Positions 3,181 to 59,069 of a stretch of 64,000 nucleotides of DNA are shown piece by piece; position 1 is the stretch's first letter, and every line of letters begins with the position of its first letter. The position numbers and the translations under genes were made by a program. The notes under the pieces were generated by a model that ran no database searches, was not told the DNA's origin, and saw only the letters and a program-made list of their open reading frames with translations. The DNA is from a virus (lineage: Duplodnaviria > Caudoviricetes): positions 1-64,000 of IMG/VR virus record IMGVR_UViG_3300033120_000461; one strand, given 5' to 3'.

Positions 3181-4098
3181 CTAGAGGTCTCTGGGCATGA
3201 GTTCACGGGCTAGGGTCTTGTCCCATATGTCCGAGCACTCCCACACAACTTTCCTTGTCTTGTCGTATCTGTTGGAGCCATCTCCAGGTGCATCCATCCA
3301 GTTCCCGTACTTCTTCTTCCCTAGTGCTCGGATCAACCCACGGCTGAAAGCCACAGGGTCTTTGATTCTCAACATAGGTGCGAGACACCCACGAGCAGTG
3401 CCTGGAGCATTCACGCTGAACGCGTGATACACACACATAGCAAGTTCCACTTCGGGTGGGAGGTCCTTGGCGGGTAGTCTGATGATGGAATCAGTCTTCT
3501 TTGGTTTCGGAAGAAACGCATTGTAGATGGATAGTTCGTCTGCACTATTTCCTTCTGCAAGCCATTTCGCGGCGTAGTTAGACTGAGCCGCAAAGGTCCT
3601 TGGAGAGGAGAGGAGAGTGGCAAATCGGAGCGCCCACTTCTCTGCGGACACGGCCGCTTGCCCTCTACGAGGTACTGCCCCGCTCTCTGAGCCGCTCAAA
3701 GCCAATCGAATGGCTTTTCCTGGCACAAGCTTCCCAGTTTGGGTGAAACGGAGCTTCCCATCTTGAGCGAGGACCCATCCAAGTTTGTTGAATTCATCCC
3801 AAACAGGGAGGAATTCCGTTGGTGCTTGAACAGAAATGTCGTGAAGGAGGGCAAAGAATGTCCCTTGGGACAAATCTTTTGGAGACACTGAGATGTTGTG
3901 CAGCAGACCTCCACTCATGCCACATCCATCATAGCTCTGGACAGTTCCCCAGGCTCCAGCCTCGATGCGAGCTGCCAAGTAGACAGCTCGATCTGAATGA
4001 ATCTCTGCATCTACGGGGGTCATAATCTTGGGTCCTCCTCGGGTAAGGAAACCAGAGAAGGACTTGTATTGGACCCAGCGTGCAGTGATGTTTTCCAT
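3181..4098 (-). CDS. Lysozyme-like muramidase (putative endolysin or virion lysin)
   Basis: RIEAGAWGTVQSYDGCGMSGGLLH fits the lysozyme-fold E...YD...SxG..H/Q pattern. Start moved to ATG 4098 (MENITARW), just after the upstream stop. Ends in TAG. Confidence 0.5.
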   Translation of the reverse strand: MENITARWVQYKSFSGFLTRGGPKIMTPVDAEIHSDRAVYLAARIEAGAWGTVQSYDGCGMSGGLLHNISVSPKDLSQGTFFALLHDISVQAPTEFLPVWDEFNKLGWVLAQDGKLRFTQTGKLVPGKAIRLALSGSESGAVPRRGQAAVSAEKWALRFATLLSSPRTFAAQSNYAAKWLAEGNSADELSIYNAFLPKPKKTDSIIRLPAKDLPPEVELAMCVYHAFSVNAPGTARGCLAPMLRIKDPVAFSRGLIRALGKKKYGNWMDAPGDGSNRYDKTRKVVWECSDIWDKTLARELMPRDL

Positions 4099-4099
4099 C

Positions 4100-5854
4100 T
4101 CAGACCTTACCCTCCTCAGAGCGATTCTGGGCTTCAATGCTTTCCCATCTGGCGCAGAGGAACTGGTAGTATTCAAAGGGGGAAAGTGCATTTTCGTACA
4201 AGCCAATAGCCCATGCGTCGTTCACCTCCACAAGGGCAGTCTCACCCGTGGACAGGACGCCTACGTCAAGGGCAAATGGGTGGCCCAACTCTTCAAACAG
4301 AAGACGCGCCATCTCTTCCACAATAGCCATGTCGGGCTTAGGTGCGTCATCCTCACCATCCTCATCATAGCGACCTGATTTCAGGTTTCCAGGACCTGAA
4401 ACGTAGTATCGGTACTCAGAGACAAAATTGACTTTTGAGGAAACCCACAACATGGTCTGAGGCGGAAGGGAGTCAAAGACCTCTCTTTCCTTCGAATCAG
4501 ACTGCAACAGAAATCCTGTGAAGGTCTTGAGTTTGTCTGCTGGCTTCACGAACACGTCCTCAGACATGTTCAGATTCTCCTTGGTTGTCTGTTGGACATC
4601 TCGAAGCAAGAACCTTTGCAGCACATCAGGATAGCAATTCCAGACTGGTAGTTTCAGACCGAGTCTCGCCATGACTGCTTGAACAAACTCGACAGTCCCC
4701 ACAGGAACTCCATCAAGTTTGGACGTGTCTAGGGTAGGCACATCTTCAAGTTTGCATTGGTAACGGACGATGGTGTCATGGAGCATAGATGCATGATGCA
4801 CCTTGCTGACCTCGTAGGATCTCCCTTCCTCCATGCTTTGGAGGAGGACACTTCTAAGCTTTGGGCTCGGCACTAGTCCTGAGGCAAACTTGAGTGCTCC
4901 AAGTGCGCCCTTCACAGAGTGGGAGAACCACCAGACTTCCTTTCCAATAATCAGCTTGATGGGCCCCTTGAGCTGACCTATCTGTACCTCAACCGAAGGT
5001 TCACTGGATCCTTTCGGAGGGGTGTGGATCGTCCAATTGACTCGATTGTCTGGCTCCTTGAAGTACGGACACCAGTCATCGAAGACCACTCCCAGACCCA
5101 AATGCTTGGCGGGTTCAAAATGCTTGGGGATGTTCTCTTTGATAGCCAGAAAGATGGGGTCTGAGGCCTTGTATGCTGCCCATTCTTCATCTCTCTTCCG
5201 AGATGCAGCGGCACTCCTCTCCCGTCTTTCTTTCTCAGCAGGTTCCATCCATCTTTCCAGAGTCACCAAAGACATCCCCTCTCGTCTGTACTTGACCCAC
5301 GCGACTACCTTGTCTTCTTCATCCGACTCTTCCCCAGCCTCATCGTAGGAGTAGCCCATTTCGAAACAGGTGATTGTTCCGTCTGGGCTGATGTCAGGTT
5401 CCTTTGAGCCTGACATCAAAGGTTCCTCTTCCTCGTTGGCTGGTTTGATCTCCGGCCACCCTTCCATAGGGTTCGAGAAGTCAAAGAATCGATTCTCATA
5501 GGGGCAAGCCCAATGACAACCATCTACGACCAAGCACTGAAGTGTTGGACTCCACTTTGAACTTGCCCAACAAAATCCATCAGGTGACATGATGTCGACC
5601 CTCTTTCCAGTGTCTAGTTCAATGACTGTCTGCCCCATGTAGTGAGAACCACACACCAGGTAGTCATGCCCGTTGGGGTGCCCTTCTACAAAAGCGTAGG
5701 GGAAACTCCCATAGTTTCGGTTCACAGTCTCAATGACTTCACCATCAGAGCGACTCACAACTCCTGTTGCATAGTCCCAACACCCAGGCCGAGTCGCTTG
5801 CTTTGAGACCTCCAATTGGTAGTGGCCACTTGGACTCATGATTGTCTTTGTCAT
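4100..5854 (-). CDS. Fusion of an unknown N-terminal domain and a C-terminal ATP-grasp domain (R2K/DUF4343-like)
   Basis: C-terminal FVKPADKLKTFTG, SEYRYYV and ALDVGVLSTGETALVEVNDAWAIGLY. Start moved to ATG 5854 because the track's first 26 codons coincide with the tRNA. Confidence 0.75.
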   Translation of the reverse strand: MTKTIMSPSGHYQLEVSKQATRPGCWDYATGVVSRSDGEVIETVNRNYGSFPYAFVEGHPNGHDYLVCGSHYMGQTVIELDTGKRVDIMSPDGFCWASSKWSPTLQCLVVDGCHWACPYENRFFDFSNPMEGWPEIKPANEEEEPLMSGSKEPDISPDGTITCFEMGYSYDEAGEESDEEDKVVAWVKYRREGMSLVTLERWMEPAEKERRERSAAASRKRDEEWAAYKASDPIFLAIKENIPKHFEPAKHLGLGVVFDDWCPYFKEPDNRVNWTIHTPPKGSSEPSVEVQIGQLKGPIKLIIGKEVWWFSHSVKGALGALKFASGLVPSPKLRSVLLQSMEEGRSYEVSKVHHASMLHDTIVRYQCKLEDVPTLDTSKLDGVPVGTVEFVQAVMARLGLKLPVWNCYPDVLQRFLLRDVQQTTKENLNMSEDVFVKPADKLKTFTGFLLQSDSKEREVFDSLPPQTMLWVSSKVNFVSEYRYYVSGPGNLKSGRYDEDGEDDAPKPDMAIVEEMARLLFEELGHPFALDVGVLSTGETALVEVNDAWAIGLYENALSPFEYYQFLCARWESIEAQNRSEEGKV

Positions 5855-5855
5855 A

Positions 5856-5930
5856 TGGTCTTGGTGGGGTTCGAACCCACGGCTGTACTGGTTTAGAATC
5901 AGTTCCCTTGGACCACTCGGGCACAAGACC
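5856..5930 (-). tRNA. tRNA with CUA anticodon (amber suppressor)
   Basis: GGTCTTG TG CCC GAGTGGTCCAA GGG A ACTGA TTCTAAA CCAGT ACAGCC GTGGG TTCGAAC CCCAC CAAGACC A: 7-bp acceptor stem, D-arm with GG, anticodon loop TT-CTA-AA, perfect 5-bp T stem, A73, CCA not encoded. Confidence 0.9.
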
Positions 5931-5959
5931 ATGTCGGCTTCAAGGTGCCGAACAACCTG

Positions 5960-6271
5960 TCAACTGAAAGCTAGGGGGAGATCTTGAACTAACTTACGCC
6001 CTGAAGGGGCAATTGCGATTGCCGCAAGTTCATTACCAAGGTCAGGTTCTGTGAAAAGGGAAACTGGCACGCCAGCTTCCCTCGTACGTTCTGCAAGAGA
6101 GGTGAGAGAGGTTAGATCATCCGTCTCCAAGAGTACAAGGGTGTTGGATGTCCGATACCACTCATCGTCAATCGTGCCAAACCCCGCTCCGAACTCACGA
6201 AGAGCATGACACAACATAGCAGCCCGAAGACCTTCCTTGAGGTCCTTGCGGGAAACAAGGAAGAGCTTCAT
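5960..6271 (-). CDS. pth2: PTH2-family peptidyl-tRNA hydrolase-like protein
   Basis: KLFLVSRKDL...GLRAAMLCHA...W...NTLVLL...FTEPDLGNELAAIAIAP matches the PTH2/PTRHD1 layout. Confidence 0.75.
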   Translation of the reverse strand: MKLFLVSRKDLKEGLRAAMLCHALREFGAGFGTIDDEWYRTSNTLVLLETDDLTSLTSLAERTREAGVPVSLFTEPDLGNELAAIAIAPSGRKLVQDLPLAFS

Positions 6272-6702
6272 GCAGCCTCCTGGACAAATGGCTTTCGTCC
6301 CTGACGAACCTTTGCCGCTGCCTCAGCAAGATGCTTTGCAAACTCCTTGCTTTCTTCCTCGGAGGGTTTCACTGCCATCCAGAGAGCTACTTCATCCTTC
6401 AAACCTGGGTTCCCAGCTGCGGCTGCGATGGCCGATGCTGAGACACTTGGCTTCTTGGTATTGCGCTCGACTTCCCAGTATCTTGCTCCACGCAGGAAGG
6501 CGTAAGCCAGTGCGAGAGTTCGGATCTGGTTCTTGTGGAACCTACTCTGGTACCAAAAATTGGTCAGAGTCTTCAGACGAGATGGCTCGCTGATAGGTGT
6601 GGATTTCTTGTAGGCCACACGTTCCTTGGTGGTCTCTTGCTTGTTGTGGACGGTCTCAGCAAGCGTTGTCTTCAGCACTACGATCTGGTTGTTCTTTTCC
6701 AT
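6268..6702 (-). CDS. Conserved phage hypothetical protein (LAYAFLRGxxY motif)
   Basis: RTLALAYAFLRGARYWEVE motif, AGGAG SD upstream, ATGA overlap with the pth2-like gene. Confidence 0.8.
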   Translation of the reverse strand: MEKNNQIVVLKTTLAETVHNKQETTKERVAYKKSTPISEPSRLKTLTNFWYQSRFHKNQIRTLALAYAFLRGARYWEVERNTKKPSVSASAIAAAAGNPGLKDEVALWMAVKPSEEESKEFAKHLAEAAAKVRQGRKPFVQEAA

Positions 6703-6815
6703 GGGGTATCTCCTAAAGGTTTGGTTGGTTCACGACGAAATGTTGTCATGGCCAAGTCCTTGGGAGGTCCACGGGGGAGATTTACCTACGTGTGGTGCGA
6801 GATCATTCCCAACAT
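6678..6815 (-). promoter_or_regulatory. Putative leader peptide ORF with in-frame amber (codon 10) and RGPP motif
   Basis: ATG TTG GGA ATG ATC TCG CAC CAC ACG TAG GTA AAT CTC CCC CGT GGA CCT CCC AAG... = MLGMISHHT*VNLPRGPPK...RS*, overlapping the SD and start of the 6268-6702 gene. Confidence 0.55.
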
Positions 6816-8075: not shown

Positions 8076-9143
8076 ATGAAACCCGTACTTCTCACACGAG
8101 ATCAATTTCGCTCAGGTGTTTTCGAACGAGACTCCAATAGGTGTGTCGTGCGCAATGCACTTGGTGTTCGCTGCGAGCAAGAAGCAGCGGACGCTCACCA
8201 CATTCTTGAACGCCGTCTTTGGTCTGATGGTGGCTACTACCTGGACAATGGTGCTTCGGTATGTCCAGACCATCACATTGAGGCTGAGCAGACCTTGATA
8301 GGATGCACAGACCTGCGTGAGTGGGCTGGGATCACAAACCTAGTCATCCCCGACCACCTTTACAGAGATCAGGGCTACGACAAATGGGGGAACCCCCTTC
8401 TTCCGAATGGCTCTCGGATGTGTGGTGAGCTTTTCTACGACGAATCTGTGCAGAAGATCCTGGCCCCTGTGCTGCACCTGTTCACGGTACGAGTAAAGTA
8501 TCCGAGGACGTACCATCTCCCTTGGTCTCCTGGGGTCACCAAAGACGATCGTGTCATCGCTGCCAAGGACCTGGATGCTCTTTTGAATATGGAGCTAGTC
8601 GTGACGGCCAAGATGGACGGGGAAAACACAACCATGTACCGAGATGGTCTTCATGCCCGCTCCTTGGACTATGAGCCTCATGGGTCTCGGGACTGGGTTC
8701 GAGCGCTCCATGCTCGGGTGGCTCATGAAATCCCAGAACGTTGGCGTATTTGTGGGGAGAACCTTTTCGCAAAGCACTCGATCCACTACTCCAATCTGGA
8801 GTCTCAATTCTTGGTCTTCTCCATCTGGGATGGTCTTCGCTGCCTGTCTTGGGACGACACTGTCGAGTATGCAGGAATGCTGAACCTTCCAGTTGTACCT
8901 GCCCTCTCAAGAGGCTCGTACCTCAGGACCCAACTTCAGGCCTTGGGCCCAACTCTGGTGAAGGATGGGTACCAGGGAGACCCCTGCGAAGGCTTTGTTG
9001 TTCGTCGAGCAGATGAGTTCCAGTATGGGGATTTCAGACGTTCAGTGGCCAAGTACGTCCGAGCCAACCACGTACAGACACACGGACACTGGATGCGCAA
9101 TCAAATCACCCCCAACACAACCCGCCGTGATGACAAGCACTGA
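8076..9143 (+). CDS. HNH domain fused to an ATP-dependent RNA ligase
   Basis: N-terminal VFERDSNRC...DAHHI...LDNGASVCPDHH (HNH); C-terminal KYPRTYHLPWS, VTAKMDGENTT (motif I), ICGENL, CEGFVVR, VAKYVR. Confidence 0.85.
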   Translation: MKPVLLTRDQFRSGVFERDSNRCVVRNALGVRCEQEAADAHHILERRLWSDGGYYLDNGASVCPDHHIEAEQTLIGCTDLREWAGITNLVIPDHLYRDQGYDKWGNPLLPNGSRMCGELFYDESVQKILAPVLHLFTVRVKYPRTYHLPWSPGVTKDDRVIAAKDLDALLNMELVVTAKMDGENTTMYRDGLHARSLDYEPHGSRDWVRALHARVAHEIPERWRICGENLFAKHSIHYSNLESQFLVFSIWDGLRCLSWDDTVEYAGMLNLPVVPALSRGSYLRTQLQALGPTLVKDGYQGDPCEGFVVRRADEFQYGDFRRSVAKYVRANHVQTHGHWMRNQITPNTTRRDDKH

Positions 9144-25354: not shown

Positions 25355-28300
25355 CTACCTCACGTCCTCGTCATACGTGAATTCCACGATGCCCAAAGAC
25401 AGGTATTCCACGCCTGTTGGCACGATGTCATGGTCTCCAGTTTCCACACCCACAGTGTAGGTTGCCCAGTATTTGTGGTTTGAAGGAGCATCACCAACAG
25501 CCAGACTTAGGAGCACTCGGTTCTGAGTGATGAGAACTCTCCGAGCCAGGATGTCTTGACCTGTTATGTACCCTTGGGAGATCAGAGTGTTGTCGTCGCT
25601 GTACCCTGGAATGACAAGACCTTCATTTCCGATGATGTAGGACCGGCCAGATGCCTCTACCAACCTTTCAGGAAGAGAGGTCTGAAGTGTAGTGGGCTCG
25701 TCATCTTGGAAGACACCTCTGAAGTCCCCCTTAGGCCCACCACCCGTTGTTGTGGCAGCGGTCAGAGTACCTGTGAGCAACCATGTCTGGACTGTCGAGT
25801 TAGACCAAAGTGGGATGCGGAATGAATCCCCAATTTGAGTTGAATTGAGTTCATCCTTGGCAACTTGTGACCCAATCGCCCGCACCATTTTCACAAGTGG
25901 GGTTGCCACATAGGAGACTCCTGTGGTGGCGTCAATGACACGAATCACGTCACTTCTACGAAGGGCAATACCCTGCCTCAAATTGGAGACTAGAAGACCA
26001 AGATTGGCCCGAATCGAGTTGTCAACAACACTCTTCACGAACCCCTTCTTTAGGATGACTGTGGCTTCAATGTCTACAGGTACTGAGATAGAACTCTTGC
26101 CAAGTACGTCTGCTGTCGCATGCTTTTTTTCATCCAAAGCCTGCTGAAGAGCACTCGTGACTAGATTCACCCGATATGTGACGACGAAGTTCTCATCGTA
26201 TCGGTAACTGATGAGAACGCTCTGGCCATCAGCAATCGTGCTGGTAGAAGTCCTCTTGATTCCAAGGGGGTTTGTCTGGTCCCCCTCAATGATTGTGTAG
26301 TCTGGGGTCGTAGTTGAGAATGGGCCTGCATAGGTCACAGTTCCTGCAACATTGGTCACGACCACAGTGAGAGAGTCTGCCCCTAAGCGAAGAACGTACT
26401 CCACATATTCACCTACGATTACATGCTCTTCGTTGGTGACTGTGAGGATGTCTCCTGTGGGGATAGAGAGTGCGGGGTCTGCACTTCCAACAATCTGAAT
26501 GTAGTCCCCTGCTTTGGTGGACCGCCCAAGAGAAAGAGGGCTGTTGGGGTGAACCAGGCTGTAGATGGAATTGTTGAGGTCTCCAGTGGACTCACCAACT
26601 ACAGACACCACAGATTCTACAGGCTGTCGAGTCAGGGTGAACTTTTCACCTGTTCTGTATCTGTAGTCTCCTAGGATGACGTCTGTGAGAGTTGGGACAA
26701 CCCATGGCTGAGACACATCCAAGTCAAGTTGGATTGTGTTGTAGTTGAGGATCTGCACTCCGCTCAAGTTGAATGAAATCCCAGTTGTCGCGTTACGCAA
26801 CCCAAGGCCAATGCTGGGGTAGTCCAGCATCTCTGCAATGGGGTTCTCTGGGGACAAATCTGAATCCAAAGCTTGGAAACGATAGGCCTCTGGGTTTCCC
26901 ACAACCACGAACTGGACCTCTCTCTTTCGCACAAACGTGAAAGCAAAGGTGTCCGTTACAGTGGCGAACCGTGTGCCTTGCTCCCAGACATCAACCTTTC
27001 CACCAATGTGAGTCTTGGTGATGGGGTCGAAGTCACGTTGCATGAGAGGGTTCCCGGCCTCTACAACCTGGGCTTGGATGACTCCGGGTACCCCAGCTGC
27101 AATCTGGTAGCACCCTTGGGTCGTGCCTGTGTCCACTGCGGAGAGTGCTCCCCGAGCTTCCGCTGCAAGTTGCGCATTGGTCTGTGAGTTCGTTCCTCCA
27201 AAGAAGGGGGAATCATTGACAACAGCGAGACCAAAAGGAGCCCCTGAGGAGATCTGACGAGAGCCCACATTCCCAGCCACACCTGGGGAAACAGCCTGAG
27301 CTGGGACCGTGATCGAATACTGACCCGTCGAAGGATTGAAGTAGCTTGCGAGCCTAGCTACATTGATTTCCGCAGCCCTTGTGGTTCGGAATGTTGCCCC
27401 TCCCCCAGTGATCAAAGTCCCAAGCAGGATTTGACGGGTTGCATTGGGGGCAGTGGATGTGAAGAATCGAACCTCTCCAATAGACCTGAATCCATTGGTA
27501 CGGACCACACCCACATTGGCCGCGAGCTTGTCGAAGGCACCATCAATCACAGTCTGGACAAGAGCTGTGTTGGCCATGTACAGAGCCTTCGCAAGAGCGA
27601 TCTTGTAGGCACTGCCAGTCACTGGAATTGAGTTCCCAGTGTTGTTGGGGTCGTCGATCTCCAAAAGGGTGTCAAAGGACGATGCTCGGTAGATGAAGTC
27701 GAGCAGGAACCGAACTCTCTCAGCCTCCTGGGAGAAAGGATCCAGGAACGTGTCTCGAATCACGGCTCCAGGCTGGACTGCAATATCCTGGTCTTTTCGG
27801 TAGATTGAAGAGATTGCGTTCTGCAAAATCTGTTGGCGACTCACTGAAGGCAGCACAGAGGTGCCAACTCGAACGTTGATTGGGTTTGCTACAACCTCAG
27901 GGGAGAAAGAGGACTCGAATTCAACCTGAGCCAGAGAATCGAAATACACAGCAGTGACTGTGTAGTACAAAGGTTCAGTTGCTGGGAGAACTGCAAAAGA
28001 GCCCACAGATATCGTGCTAGGCACACTTGAAAGATTGAACTTCCGGTTGTGCTTGAACTCAAAGTAGCTGACGTGTTCGATTGAGGAAATCGCCACGTCA
28101 ATCTGGATTTCTGACACCGTGTCAGGGATGCTCACCGTGGAATCAACATCGGTCTCCAAAGTGACTTGATTGAAGTCCTCTTGGGAGATCTGAGCCCGAA
28201 CAAACAAGGGGTCCGCGCCCGCTGTGTTGTTCTTGCTGACTAGATTGTAGAGAGGTCGAACATTCTCGACGAAGACTGGAACCGTCACAGGTTGTGCGTT

Positions 28301-28771
28301 GATTCTGGAGTACCCTCTCGCACCTCCGCCTGCTGTAGCTGAGGCGTAGAAGTTGTACCCAGTGATCCGAGAATCTGAAATTCCACGCGCACTGACATTC
28401 ACGAAGTCATCGAATCTCTCGACTGAGATTTCGGTTGGTGGCAAGACAACCTGAGTCCCAGACAAGAGCAGAACAGTCGCTTTTACAGGAGCCGAGGATG
28501 GGCCAGAGAGAGGTACTGAACGCACCTCGATTGTGTTCTCTCCTGCAAACAGCTCTAACCCGTTTGGGTATGAGGTCGGGTTTGGGACAATCCAGCCTCC
28601 CGAGGAGAAGGACACAAGCGATGGGTCAGTGGAGAATGCTCCCCCACGGATTGAGACTTCCAGATCTGCTGTGTCTACATTGATTGTCCCAGAAAAGAAG
28701 CGTGTCGTCGAAGTAGTCGAGAAGACCACTTCGTTTGCATACGTACCATCGGGACCTTGGACTTTTAGCAT
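25355..28771 (-). CDS. Baseplate J/gp47-like wedge protein (T4 gp6-like), extended
   Basis: QPGAVIRDTFLDP, FDKLAANVGVVR, VPAQAVSPGVAGNV, FFGGTNSQTNAQL. Ends in TAG. Confidence 0.85.
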   Translation of the reverse strand: MLKVQGPDGTYANEVVFSTTSTTRFFSGTINVDTADLEVSIRGGAFSTDPSLVSFSSGGWIVPNPTSYPNGLELFAGENTIEVRSVPLSGPSSAPVKATVLLLSGTQVVLPPTEISVERFDDFVNVSARGISDSRITGYNFYASATAGGGARGYSRINAQPVTVPVFVENVRPLYNLVSKNNTAGADPLFVRAQISQEDFNQVTLETDVDSTVSIPDTVSEIQIDVAISSIEHVSYFEFKHNRKFNLSSVPSTISVGSFAVLPATEPLYYTVTAVYFDSLAQVEFESSFSPEVVANPINVRVGTSVLPSVSRQQILQNAISSIYRKDQDIAVQPGAVIRDTFLDPFSQEAERVRFLLDFIYRASSFDTLLEIDDPNNTGNSIPVTGSAYKIALAKALYMANTALVQTVIDGAFDKLAANVGVVRTNGFRSIGEVRFFTSTAPNATRQILLGTLITGGGATFRTTRAAEINVARLASYFNPSTGQYSITVPAQAVSPGVAGNVGSRQISSGAPFGLAVVNDSPFFGGTNSQTNAQLAAEARGALSAVDTGTTQGCYQIAAGVPGVIQAQVVEAGNPLMQRDFDPITKTHIGGKVDVWEQGTRFATVTDTFAFTFVRKREVQFVVVGNPEAYRFQALDSDLSPENPIAEMLDYPSIGLGLRNATTGISFNLSGVQILNYNTIQLDLDVSQPWVVPTLTDVILGDYRYRTGEKFTLTRQPVESVVSVVGESTGDLNNSIYSLVHPNSPLSLGRSTKAGDYIQIVGSADPALSIPTGDILTVTNEEHVIVGEYVEYVLRLGADSLTVVVTNVAGTVTYAGPFSTTTPDYTIIEGDQTNPLGIKRTSTSTIADGQSVLISYRYDENFVVTYRVNLVTSALQQALDEKKHATADVLGKSSISVPVDIEATVILKKGFVKSVVDNSIRANLGLLVSNLRQGIALRRSDVIRVIDATTGVSYVATPLVKMVRAIGSQVAKDELNSTQIGDSFRIPLWSNSTVQTWLLTGTLTAATTTGGGPKGDFRGVFQDDEPTTLQTSLPERLVEASGRSYIIGNEGLVIPGYSDDNTLISQGYITGQDILARRVLITQNRVLLSLAVGDAPSNHKYWATYTVGVETGDHDIVPTGVEYLSLGIVEFTYDEDVR

Positions 28772-33062: not shown

Positions 33063-33973
33063 GTCTTCTCCCCTGCCCACTTAGATGTGCGAGTTCCTCT
33101 TTCTGGGATGAGGAAACCTTCACTGAGTTTGCGAAGGAACCTACTTCCGTAAGAGCCATTTTCAAGTGAGTGGTACAGATGTTCTGGGAAGACCCTAGGG
33201 TTTTTCATCCAGCTCAGTTCTTTGGACTGCATGCCTGCTCCATAGGCAATAGCTGCAACCGTGTCTGTGTCCCCGCCAAACTCCACACACAACTGGAGGA
33301 GGAGATTGGGTTCAGTGGCTCGCTTCAACACTGAGACAGCTGCCCGCACACACGCGATCCCGTCACAAGGCACACGTCCTGACCAGTCTCCACACCAATC
33401 GTATCCTGAGATATGTTGACTCAAGAAGTAGGGGAGGTCTTTGTTGGGCCCCAGAGCGTAGTAGCAGTAGTGAAACATCAAGGCAGCCGCCGCAGCGCTG
33501 TCTCTGCCCTCTGGCGTGTCATGAGTGACTGATGCCTGGAGCATTGAGAACTCGACTACATCAAACACTGAAGCAAAGATCCCACCTGGCAAAGCTCGCA
33601 TAGCGGCGCCTGATCTTGTGCTGTCTGGTTTGATCTCATCAAGGAACTGCTGACCAGTTTTCACACTGCACAGAAACTTGTAGAAACCCTTGGCGTATGT
33701 TTCTCGTGGGTCCCGCTCGAAACACCTTACAAAAGCATTGGCGATCTCAAGCTTTGTGATTGGTGTTCTTCCATTTGCTGCCTCATCCCTGTACCGCTGA
33801 ACTACTTCAGCAATGGCGATAGACATTTGGGTGTCATCCGTGTACACCCCTTTATCCTTGTTCGATAGAGCATGGGGGCGGTAGTACAGGTCGTTGTTTT
33901 TTTGAATGAACTCGTCATCCTTAAACTCAAACCCTGCTCCATAGGCATCGGCTACAGCGATATCAAGTAACAT
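33059..33973 (-). CDS. ADP-ribosylglycohydrolase (DraG/ARH family)
   Basis: AVADAYG, YTDDTQM, SGAAMR and GGDTDTVAAI metal-binding motifs intact. Confidence 0.92.
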   Translation of the reverse strand: MLLDIAVADAYGAGFEFKDDEFIQKNNDLYYRPHALSNKDKGVYTDDTQMSIAIAEVVQRYRDEAANGRTPITKLEIANAFVRCFERDPRETYAKGFYKFLCSVKTGQQFLDEIKPDSTRSGAAMRALPGGIFASVFDVVEFSMLQASVTHDTPEGRDSAAAAALMFHYCYYALGPNKDLPYFLSQHISGYDWCGDWSGRVPCDGIACVRAAVSVLKRATEPNLLLQLCVEFGGDTDTVAAIAYGAGMQSKELSWMKNPRVFPEHLYHSLENGSYGSRFLRKLSEGFLIPERGTRTSKWAGEKT

Positions 33974-57605: not shown

Positions 57606-58142
57606 TCATTTCTGCTTACTCTTTGAGACACTTTTTTTTGAAGCTCTCTTTTTTTTGGTTTCTTGGACAGTGCCTTTTGGTTTCCCTCTGGGAGTAGTGA
57701 ACGCTGCGTTCCCCCAACCAAGACGGATCCTGGCAAGCAGTCTGTCGTAAGAGATCTTCAGCTTCCGAGCCCAAGCTCTCTTGGTGCGGAGAACCCCATC
57801 GACCATGACCATATGGTCAGCATGGCTGTTTAGCCCTTGATTCTGTTGTGACGCTGTCTGCCAACTACACTCTCCGGGGCCATAGTCACTGAAAGGAGTG
57901 AGACGTCCTATGGTCTTGTTCGCAGGTCGTTCACCCATGTCCTGGAGGAAGTTCTCAAACTTGCGCCACCTCTCTACGACACAAACTCCAGCTCCCCCGT
58001 AGTTTTCGTAAGAGGGATGCTTCTTGTCGCAGCACCTTTGGATCATGGCTCTCCACGTGGTGTACGTGGGAGACTCTCTCCGACCATCCTCACGCATGGT
58101 GCGATGGCCATGCAAGTGACTCGGGTGCCTATTCTTCTTCAT
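57606..58142 (-). CDS. HNH-homing-endonuclease-related protein with a basic tail
   Basis: PTYTTWRAMIQRC...YENYGGAGVCVVERWRKFENFLQDMGERP...TIGR...CSWQTASQQ. Confidence 0.7.
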   Translation of the reverse strand: MKKNRHPSHLHGHRTMREDGRRESPTYTTWRAMIQRCCDKKHPSYENYGGAGVCVVERWRKFENFLQDMGERPANKTIGRLTPFSDYGPGECSWQTASQQNQGLNSHADHMVMVDGVLRTKRAWARKLKISYDRLLARIRLGWGNAAFTTPRGKPKGTVQETKKKRASKKSVSKSKQK

Positions 58143-58986
58143 CGAAACCCAGAAGTCCCCCAAGACTTGTTGGGGCGCTAACAACTTGAGGTGTCACAAC
58201 CTCCTCCCACACACCACCTCTCTTTGGGAGCGTGAAGATTTCCCCGAGAGGAGCAAGACGTTCTTTTGCTACCTCCAAGGACTTGGGGGATATGTCGCAG
58301 CCAGCAAAGGACCGGCCGGACTTCAACGCAGCTTCACCACAAGATGCAGATCCCATGAATGGGTCAATCACCAGGTCTCCTGGATTGCTGGAGTTTTCGA
58401 TCAGGGTTCGTAGGAGTGAGACGGGCTTCTCAGTTGGGTATGCCTTATCCACTCTCGGTGCAGGGAGAACATCAGGCCACCCCAGATGGTTGAGTTTCCG
58501 CTTTCCCTTTTCAAGGAAGGAGATCTCCTCCTTCGAGTTCCGCCAATGGTACCCCATACCAATCTTGACATCATCCTCGGACAGTTCCTTTTCAGGATCA
58601 ATGACCTCGCCATCGTCCTTCCCACATACCTTCACCCATGAAAGACTCTTCCAGAAGACAAACCCAGCCTCACGGCCCATGGGCCTGACCACATCGATCA
58701 TGGTCTCTTGGTCAGAAATCATGTAGAGATGGGAGTTCTTCTTCAGAACACGGTAGATTTCTGAGAGCAGTTCAGGAACCCTATGGTTCCTGAAGATCTC
58801 GAACCATTCGTTCGAGGAGCCATCACTGACCTTCAGTCGAGTCGTGGTTCCCTTACTCCGATGCTTCTCCAAGCTCTCATATGCGTAGTCCGTGACACAC
58901 AAGTCTACACTCTCATCTGGTAGAGTTTTCAACCACGCCACGCTGTCCATTTGAGTGAGTGAGAACTTGGAAGGTTTATCAGTCAT
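58129..58986 (-). CDS. Beta-class DNA amino-methyltransferase (N4-C/N6-A) with variant motif IV
   Basis: DSVAWLKTLPDESVDLCVTDYAY, YPTEKPVSLL, VIDPFMGSAS. Ends in TAG. Confidence 0.85.
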   Translation of the reverse strand: MTDKPSKFSLTQMDSVAWLKTLPDESVDLCVTDYAYESLEKHRSKGTTTRLKVSDGSSNEWFEIFRNHRVPELLSEIYRVLKKNSHLYMISDQETMIDVVRPMGREAGFVFWKSLSWVKVCGKDDGEVIDPEKELSEDDVKIGMGYHWRNSKEEISFLEKGKRKLNHLGWPDVLPAPRVDKAYPTEKPVSLLRTLIENSSNPGDLVIDPFMGSASCGEAALKSGRSFAGCDISPKSLEVAKERLAPLGEIFTLPKRGGVWEEVVTPQVVSAPTSLGGLLGFDEEE

Positions 58987-59001: not shown

Positions 59002-59069
59002 TGGACCTTGACGGAATCGAACCGCCACCCCCGCCAATGCAGGGACGCTCCCAAAATAAGCCTAGGCCC
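59002..59069 (-). ncRNA. tRNA-Ala-like RNA with a collapsed anticodon loop
   Basis: GGGCCT AG GCTT ATTTTGG GAGC GT CCCTGC ATTG GCGGGG GT GGCGG TTCGATT CCGTC A AGGTCC A: G3-U70, A73, D-arm and T-arm present, 4-nt central loop. Confidence 0.6.

Follow-up and report, generated by a model that had tools for sequence, protein, structure and literature searches.

Introduction

What is a tRNA that reads UAG for in a phage genome that still uses TAG as a stop codon? This question is raised by a tRNA gene with the anticodon CUA at positions 5856–5930 of a 64,000-nucleotide stretch of phage DNA (Duplodnaviria; Caudoviricetes), hereafter the window, which is the first 64 kb of the linear IMG/VR record IMGVR_UViG_3300033120_000461 (73,282 nt; record-wide scans cover 73 kb). 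An initial annotation, made from the sequence alone, described it as an unannotated amber-suppressor tRNA. The gene, here called tRNA(CUA), lies on the minus strand directly behind a gene for a Pth2-like protein (peptidyl-tRNA hydrolase family), in an operon that begins with a leader mini-ORF (open reading frame) in which a UAG codon precedes the ribosome-arrest motif RGPP. The anticodon, the leader UAG and RGPP are conserved in related lineages. We tentatively put forward, as a possibility with slightly less in its favour than against it, that a self-contained translational switch, of a kind so far undescribed, is built from tRNA(CUA), the UAG-RGPP leader and the Pth2-like gene. In such a switch an arrest peptide would be made only after stop read-through, a suppressor tRNA from the same transcript would act as the inducer that unmasks the downstream genes, and the Pth2-like protein would clear peptidyl-tRNAs; other lineages would gate the Pth2-like gene directly at codon 2–5.

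Structure and conservation of tRNA(CUA)

ARAGORN finds a single tRNA in the window (5855–5931, minus strand, anticodon CTA), and the entire 73-kb record holds no other. In a search of the whole window, the Rfam family RF00005 matches 5856–5930 on the minus strand end to end with 56.8 bits (E=1.3e-9; gathering score, 29 bits), covering model positions 1–71, and the cloverleaf is the minimum-free-energy fold. The full cloverleaf shows the conserved U8, A14, G18G19, U33, purine at position 37 and TTCRA of this family, and its score lies above the curated threshold. The details listed by the initial annotation are all present in the sequence, namely a variable region of 6 nt (ACAGCC), an A·C mismatch closing the anticodon stem, G1-C72 and A73; CCA is not encoded. 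The anticodon loop UUCUAAA has seven nucleotides with U33, is closed by A31·C39 and carries CUA as an amber-suppressor tRNA does. The T loop, TTCGAAC, is canonical.

The close relatives of this locus were found only through a search with the Pth2-like protein, whose homologues show 52–98% identity. The contexts of eight of these homologues (59–98% identity) were retrieved, giving 10 loci of eight lineages, and one or two CUA tRNAs stand directly after the Pth2-like gene in all 10 loci. One of them, the 2.4-kb contig L111, was assembled from another sequencing run and is 96.3% identical to the window over 574 nt comprising the tRNA and its flanks. None of the 21 mismatches falls inside the tRNA (75/75 identical). 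An assembly error in the anticodon, such as CTA in place of GTA, is therefore excluded. The similarity to L111 stops exactly at the 3' end of the tRNA, at an inserted Endonuclease VII gene (L111:583-1056, minus strand), and resumes inside the ATP-grasp gene.

When ten lineage tRNAs are aligned, 17 of the 19 predicted stem pairs show compensatory changes on both sides, and TCTAA of the anticodon loop is invariant. This pattern indicates that tRNA(CUA) is a real, evolutionarily conserved gene under selection. The window tRNA differs from its aligned kin by a flip of G10:C25 to C10:G25, a G13·A22 mismatch and A73, several kin having G73. The D arm, CCCGAGTGGTCCAAGGG, is indeed present as the initial annotation had read it, of a Tyr/Leu/Ser type. 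As a sign of class-II origin, however, it does not hold, for the syntenic relatives have an ordinary G10:C25; the class-II-like D arm is best understood from the alignment as a derived state within a class-I lineage. The initial annotation had suggested that the mismatch at 31·39 may weaken suppression. Non-Watson-Crick combinations recur at this position (A·C in L114; C·C in L109_b, L116 and the mycobacteriophage Myrna), so that the mismatch looks tolerated or selected rather than defective.

Several identities were considered and rejected. ARAGORN labels the gene tRNA-Pyl because the anticodon is CUA, but the fold is that of an ordinary elongator tRNA. The fold of pylT is atypical, with a 3-nt variable loop, a 6-bp anticodon stem and a small D loop without G18G19; tRNA(CUA) instead has G18G19 and TTCGA in canonical form, five positions in its anticodon stem and six nucleotides in its variable loop. 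Bacterial tRNA-Tyr, a class II tRNA, was set aside because the variable region has only 6 nt and the likeness of the D arm amounts to a pair flip in a class-I lineage. Other phage tRNAs that combine a Tyr-like D arm with CUA (L086, L088, L089, L091–L093) form a small unrelated set and are not kin, which disposes of them as witnesses to a class-II origin. That unrelated lineage occurs in two forms, one with a long variable arm (L086:7161-7245, 85 nt) and one with a short arm (L092:1201-1279 and L093:1750-1828, 79 nt), both with position 1:72 unpaired and G73. Loss of the variable arm therefore does occur in phage suppressor tRNAs.

The inserted amino acid is not deducible from the sequence, as the initial annotation had maintained. 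Per-isotype profile hidden Markov models built from ~290 phage tRNAs place Lys, Ser, Cys and Tyr all within 4 bits for tRNA(CUA), the Tyr profile scoring 17 bits, under Lys, Ser and Cys, and the answers for the relatives are inconsistent. The nearest sequence matches are contradictory as well (phage tRNA-Tyr, tRNA-Cys, tRNA-Gln and a GCA pseudo-tRNA). No isotype is assigned because best matches and profile scores disagree on the amino acid between members. Searches with the tRNA itself returned nothing, neither by blastn against E. coli genomes, nor by exact and degenerate patterns in IMG/VR or metagenome contigs, nor by megablast of the tRNA region against INPHARED. The pattern searches of IMG/VR and metagenome contigs also gave no sequence-similar orthologue with another anticodon.

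A conserved UAG codon in front of an arrest motif

Upstream of every ORF144 homologue, at ~100 nt and in intergenic DNA without a called gene, lies the leader mini-ORF; the leader is ~110 nt long. In the window it encodes M-I-S-H-H-T, followed by UAG as codon 7 and, in the read-through frame, by V-N-L-P and R-G-P-P. The pattern M..HH[L/T]-TAG-(3-4 codons)-RGPP is conserved in all seven lineages examined: MISHHT-TAG-VNLP-RGPP in the window, MTLVNHHL-TAG-IRSA-RGPP in L109, MQPHLT-TAG-VRS-RGPP in L112, MTKHHL-TAG-ICPS-RGPP in L115, MHHHL-TAG-ICSA-RGPP in L116, MNSHHT-TAG-VCFA-RGPP in L117 and ...MTWT-TAG-LPLP-RGPP in L118. The codons for RGPP vary at their third positions only, and all of the variants are synonymous (CGT/CGC, GGA/GGT/GGC, CCT/CCC and CCC/CCG/CCA/CCT), a pattern that marks the peptide as the target of selection.

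Among published ribosome-arrest motifs, RGPP is the strongest, the most robust and the least dependent on context; it resists EF-P, and no tetrapeptide is more depleted in bacterial proteomes (PMC12992588). Leaders with arrest peptides of the RAPP/RGPP type include ApdA, ApdP and SecM-like ones (PMC7897499, PMC10951233, PMC12992588). As in these leaders, R-[A/G]-P-P stands in a small co-directional upstream ORF, here ~50 nt before the Shine-Dalgarno (SD) sequence of ORF144. Because RGPP sits behind the UAG, it is translated only if that UAG is suppressed. The RGPP-coding segment, CGUGGACCUCCC, is predicted to pair with the SD sequence and AUG of ORF144 in both the single-sequence and the consensus folds.

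The read-through frame of the leader ends at a second TAG (6678–6680, minus strand), 22 nt inside ORF144. A ribosome that escapes the arrest would thus cross the ORF144 start site.

The identical tRNA in an independent contig, the invariant CUA amid co-varying stems and the conserved UAG within the same operon bear out the view that this is a genuine amber suppressor in a standard-code phage. We consider it rather probable that 5856–5930 encodes a functional phage amber-suppressor tRNA with the leader UAG as its dedicated target.

The Pth2-like/tRNA(CUA) pair in close and distant relatives

The close relatives share a gene order consisting of the ORF144 homologue, sometimes an extra ORF, the Pth2-like gene, at least one tRNA(CUA), the N-domain protein and orf341. 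Their Pth2-like gene starts with MKLFLV and has no UAG gate. In three of these loci (L112:3911-4838, L113:1619-2546 and L114:873-1557), a truncated protein resembling release factor 1 (RF1) is encoded right after the CUA tRNA. It keeps GGQ and has PAN or PPN in place of PxT. A +1 frameshift site of the prfB type, CTT TGA C, with Shine-Dalgarno-like GGAG/GGGGG in front of it, divides the gene. This RF1-like neighbour strengthens the link of the module to translation termination.

The pair also recurs in distant phages. Huge-phage relatives, whose tRNA genes cluster near their RNA ligase gene, were located with the RNA ligase of the record as anchor. The 80 RNA-ligase loci found in IMG/VR hold 283 tRNAs, of which 11 (~4%) have the anticodon CUA. 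All nine distinct records that bear such a tRNA have a Pth2-like gene within 2.3 kb of it, usually within 600 nt and on the same strand. A tblastn search of INPHARED with the Pth2-like protein gives two further cases. The cultured mycobacteriophage Myrna has a CUA tRNA 130 nt behind gp84, which is 37% identical to the Pth2-like protein of the window, and the uncultured 462-kb genome LR756500 has one 800 nt behind its Pth2-like gene. The Myrna tRNA (L107:4463-4534; record 33522–33593) is annotated as tRNA-Ser (gene 86), ARAGORN giving the anticodon CUA; it has a reduced D arm and C·C at 31·39. Altogether 11 of the 15 distant Pth2-like genes, including those of the complete 305-kb G007, LR756500 and Myrna, have a CUA tRNA within 2.3 kb, and those of L009, L011, L032 and G010 have none nearby. 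The tRNA bodies of the distant lineages are heterogeneous and unlike the window tRNA.

Seven of the linked Pth2-like genes contain an in-frame TAG, in six of them at codon 2–5, directly after ATG. The Pth2-like genes of the close relatives, Myrna, G003 and G007 have no in-frame TAG. The conserved TAG at codon 2–5 is found in the huge-phage lineages L100 (10158–10160), L101 (10114–10116), L103, L105, L106 and L108. In L108 the next gene too begins ATG-AAA-TAG. A second TAG in L100 (10038–10040) and L101 (9994–9996) aligns with a Trp that is kept in most homologues, including that of the window. The Pth2-like frame of L101 (8956–10215, minus strand) also carries an in-frame insertion of ~290 codons between EPD and TAIA, which is intein- or intron-like.

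At the window, the Pth2-like gene and the CUA tRNA are paired on the same strand with a gap of 29 nt. No in-frame TAG is found in the Pth2-like gene (5960–6271) or in the 17 codons upstream of it; the early UAG is in the leader frame. The window holds a variant of the Pth2-like/tRNA(CUA) module whose putative gate lies in the leader instead of the hydrolase gene. No publication describing the pairing was found.

TAG is a stop codon in the record

CheckV estimates the completeness of the record at 14%. The record is therefore a fragment of a very large phage, with an estimated genome of ~500 kb. In keeping with this, giant ORFs (3599 and 1728 aa) occur together with structural genes (a tail-fibre protein and a sheath-initiator domain), the 80 relatives of its RNA ligase lie mostly on phage contigs of 100–600 kb, and the majority of its proteins fall into no PHROG or Pfam family.

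The initial annotation had stated that TAG still acts as a stop in this genome, and both coding density and gene ends agree. In a greedy tiling of ORFs the coding density is 0.951 under code 11 and 0.956 with TAG as sense, so that over the 14% of the genome covered there is no sign of recoding to code 15. The 90 tiled ORFs end with TGA in 71 cases (~79%), with TAG in 11 and with TAA in eight, a stop bias that is extreme for 51% GC. TAG ends secure genes, and the read-through extensions of TAG-terminated genes are short or of non-coding composition. The record uses the standard code in the part at hand, and TAG is a working stop. No release-factor gene is found in the 73-kb fragment, nor is a further gene with an early TAG. 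The sequence ATG-GGG-TAG before a RecA-like gene was considered as a UAG gate and rejected, as that gene has a proper SD sequence and an ATG at 273.

At 59002–59069 on the minus strand, 16 nt in front of the DNA methyltransferase gene that ends with TAG, the Rfam tRNA model picks up a weak tRNA-like element of 17.3 bits, which is below threshold. The layout recalls the order of tRNA and gene at 5856.

Organization of the operon

The operon on the minus strand runs in the order leader mini-ORF, ORF144, Pth2-like gene, tRNA(CUA), N-domain/ATP-grasp protein, orf341 and a Dam-type methyltransferase (Table 1). Homologues of ORF144 with 37–50% identity take the same position in L109, L112/L113 and L115–L118, and L111 ends in a 48-residue C-terminal fragment of one. 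The N-domain/ATP-grasp gene starts 16 nt after the tRNA, and N-domain homologues come after the tRNA in L109, L110, L111, L115 and L116. ORF144, orf341 and the N-domain gave no lead in Pfam, PHROG or Atlas, and a search for related loci with the ATP-grasp protein returned nothing.

A simple scan found no sigma-70-like promoter for the operon. A conserved motif, CCCTAGAC/CCCTTGAC, lies ~30–45 nt upstream of the leader ATG (6841–6835 in the window). CCCTAGAC occurs at the equivalent position in L112, L116 and L117, and CCCTTGAC-like sequences in L109 and L115. The motif may be a -35 element or an operator of the operon promoter.

Table 1 Coordinates of the operon members and of other genes of the record discussed in the text
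Feature	Position	Strand	Remarks
Leader mini-ORF	6762..6815	-	ATG 6806-6804; upstream in-frame ATG 6815-6813; UAG 6788-6786; RGPP 6773-6762
ORF144	6268..6702	-	Shine-Dalgarno AGGAG 6714-6710; stop overlaps Pth2-like start (ATGA)
Pth2-like gene, 103 aa	5960..6271	-	Pfam PF01981, 26 bits (cut-off 23); 29 nt upstream of tRNA
tRNA, anticodon CUA (5896-5894)	5856..5930	-	75 nt; ARAGORN, Rfam, minimum-free-energy fold, L111 copy, covariation
N-terminal domain fused to R2K-clade ATP-grasp	4100..5839	-	PF18299/PF14243 on residues ~400-563; 579 aa (gene caller's start)
orf341, distal co-directional member	3181..4206	-	55-58% identical homologues downstream in L109, L115, L116, L117
RNA ligase gene	8076..9143	+	PHROG 24030, E=8e-121; Pfam PF09414; 2 kb away, opposite strand
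1138-aa gene, TAG-terminated	25355..28771	-	ORF tiling; TAA back-up 4 codons on
DNA methyltransferase gene, TAG-terminated	58129-58986		Back-up stop 12 codons on
TAG-terminated gene	69405-69704		Back-up stop 2 codons on

A possible switch and its alternatives

The proposed switch would work as follows. The tRNA would be co-transcribed with the operon and excised from the polycistronic transcript by RNase P and 3' processing of the host; a host enzyme would add CCA, and a host synthetase would charge it. Its dedicated target is likely to be the UAG in the leader of its own operon. Without suppression, translation of the leader would terminate after M-I-S-H-H-T. With suppression, the ribosome would read four more codons and then be arrested on R-G-P-P with CCU (6767–6765) in the P site. 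A ribosome stalled at 6767–6762 would cover CGUGGACCUCCC and thereby free the SD sequence and AUG of ORF144, so that the stall would probably switch on ORF144 and the translationally coupled Pth2-like gene. In other lineages the same logic would be wired directly, through the UAG at codon 2–5 of the Pth2-like gene. As to the direction of control, we favour activation of ORF144 and the Pth2-like gene by leader read-through, by analogy with these other lineages, in which the Pth2-like protein depends strictly on suppression because a UAG stands at the beginning of its ORF. The side effects of read-through on the phage's own TAG-terminated genes would be small, because few genes end with TAG and the three secure ones among them have a back-up stop 2–12 codons further on. 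The Pth2-like protein might handle peptidyl-tRNA that arises from suppression or arrest, which is a guess.

What is established is the parts, their order, their conservation and the invariance of CUA, UAG and RGPP. Several points weigh against the switch. Expression, processing, charging, suppression and arrest are all inferred from these sequences. The ribosome-binding site of the leader itself is weak in the window genome, and what is conserved in the CCUCC of the Pro codons could be the RNA and not the peptide. The pairing between the leader and the SD sequence is energetically weak (z=-1.25 on the single sequence; consensus, -2.3 kcal/mol) and is almost without covariation, because both of its sides are conserved and pairs that do not vary are uninformative. 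The GK and DAGxT motifs of the canonical Pth2 of G010 are missing from the Pth2-like subfamily, whose activity is uncertain. Finally, with ~14% of the estimated genome in hand, further UAG targets may exist.

This last point leads to a different explanation, in which the tRNA mainly serves recoded genes outside the fragment, such as late or lysis genes with many in-frame TAGs elsewhere in the ~500-kb genome, and the leader UAG is incidental. Recoding confined to a class of genes, and suppressor tRNAs in standard-code kin of recoded phages, are documented (bioRxiv 10.1101/2021.08.26.457843), and some relatives do carry in-frame TAGs in their Pth2-like genes. However, the structural genes within the 73 kb, among them the tail fibre, the sheath initiator and the ORFs of 3599 and 1728 aa, have no in-frame TAG. 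Coding density stays flat with TAG as sense, and there is little gain in the 17-kb loci of CUA-bearing relatives either. Because recoding elsewhere would also leave the conserved UAG-RGPP leader unexplained, we regard it as unlikely. A global action of the tRNA seems to us just as improbable a main function. In that case it would read through UAG stops of the host or of competing phages for takeover or exclusion, or rescue ribosomes when RF1 is limiting, with the Pth2-like protein clearing dropped-off peptidyl-tRNA. The release-factor-like gene right after the tRNA in L112–L114 fits such a role, and so do the stops of the phage itself, of which 79% are TGA; each of the three secure genes that end with TAG has a back-up stop within 2–12 codons. 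XacN1 (PMC5852040) and Atu_ph07 (PMC6102473), cultured standard-code jumbo phages, carry CUA or UCA suppressors without an identified target. Global action is compatible with the data and not exclusive of the proposed switch, but it leaves both the UAG-RGPP leader and the UAGs at codon 2–5 of the Pth2-like genes of other lineages unexplained.

A role without decoding is very unlikely. The tRNA shape could be an RNase P/Z processing signal before the downstream gene or a decoy for host nucleases that target tRNAs, given that the tRNA ends 1–16 nt before the next start codon, that the element at 59002–59069 also precedes a gene by 16 nt and that an RNA ligase gene is nearby. A processing signal, however, needs no given anticodon, yet CUA and the loop UUCUAA are invariant while the stems diverge, and UAG codons are conserved in the same operons. 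Least probable of all is an artefact or a pseudogene, i.e., an ordinary tRNA altered by neutral mutation or by an error of sequencing or assembly (e.g., GTA to CTA). The gene was seen at first on a single metagenomic contig, but the identical tRNA of an independent assembly, CUA in all 10 loci of the relatives, the strong covariation and the lack of a similar orthologue with another anticodon in IMG/VR or metagenome contigs effectively refute this explanation.

Comparison with known systems

Suppressor tRNAs of standard-code phages have been reported several times without a known target (e.g., in XacN1), and the leader UAG offers a concrete candidate. If the proposed switch is true, nature would have a circuit that uses the read-through of a stop codon as a gene-activation signal. 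The switch would also account for the joint occurrence of Pth2-like hydrolases and CUA tRNAs in many large phages, cultured mycobacteriophages among them, and would represent a plausible intermediate towards stop-codon reassignment.

Recoded phages (crAss-like, Lak and Agate/Jade) carry suppressor tRNAs; their standard-code kin acquire such tRNAs, and the targeted stop is rare (bioRxiv 10.1101/2021.08.26.457843). The window phage shares with the recoded phages of Borges et al. a stop-reading phage tRNA in a standard-code host, and the idea that suppression times late genes is common to both. In contrast, no genome-wide in-frame TAG is visible here, and the target is a single leader UAG before an arrest motif instead of sense positions. 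Nor does the window phage, with 51% GC and TGA as its dominant stop, follow the low-GC, TAA-rich route proposed for the recoded phages. XacN1 and Atu_ph07 are likewise large standard-code phages with a suppressor tRNA and a peptidyl-tRNA hydrolase gene, which is Pth2-like here. The papers on them found no target for the suppressor tRNAs and report no linkage to the hydrolase (PMC5852040, PMC6102473), whereas the tRNA of the window is linked physically and evolutionarily to the Pth2-like gene and to a conserved UAG. Jumbo phages are known to encode PTH2 (PMC7824862), and in cluster C mycobacteriophages PTH2-like genes stand inside tRNA arrays (PMC5966550). The same protein family thus stands among phage tRNA genes in those reports, but a CUA-specific pairing is not reported there.

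Like the ApdA, ApdP and SecM-like leaders, the leader of the window is a short upstream ORF with R-G-P-P that can pair with the downstream ribosome-binding site, and arrest would be expected to unmask that site. In known arrest leaders, export or insertion of a protein relieves the arrest. Here a ribosome can reach the motif only by reading through a stop, so that the input would be suppressor-tRNA activity, and the nascent chain has only ~14 residues and no signal peptide. The autoregulation of prfB, which encodes release factor 2 (RF2), relies on an in-frame UGA and a +1 frameshift that senses RF2. As in prfB, an early in-frame stop in the leader would sense the termination or read-through capacity of the cell. 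Unlike prfB, it would sense read-through by a dedicated tRNA, and there is no CTT TGA C site in the window.

The classical amber suppressors of E. coli, supF and supE, are tRNA-Tyr and tRNA-Gln with the anticodon CUA, respectively. The window tRNA shares with them CUA followed by A37. Its C10:G25 D arm, G1-C72 and A73 resemble bacterial tRNA-Tyr, and the anticodon arm of its relatives resembles tRNA-Gln. However, it differs from tRNA-Tyr in having no long variable arm, and from tRNA-Gln in having no G73 and no weak 1-72 pair or G10. Suppressor tRNAs of large standard-code phages are already known as a kind. What is new is that this one belongs to a conserved operon whose cis target, specific and itself conserved, would couple stop-codon read-through to an arrest peptide, a functional coupling that we infer from the conservation of its parts.

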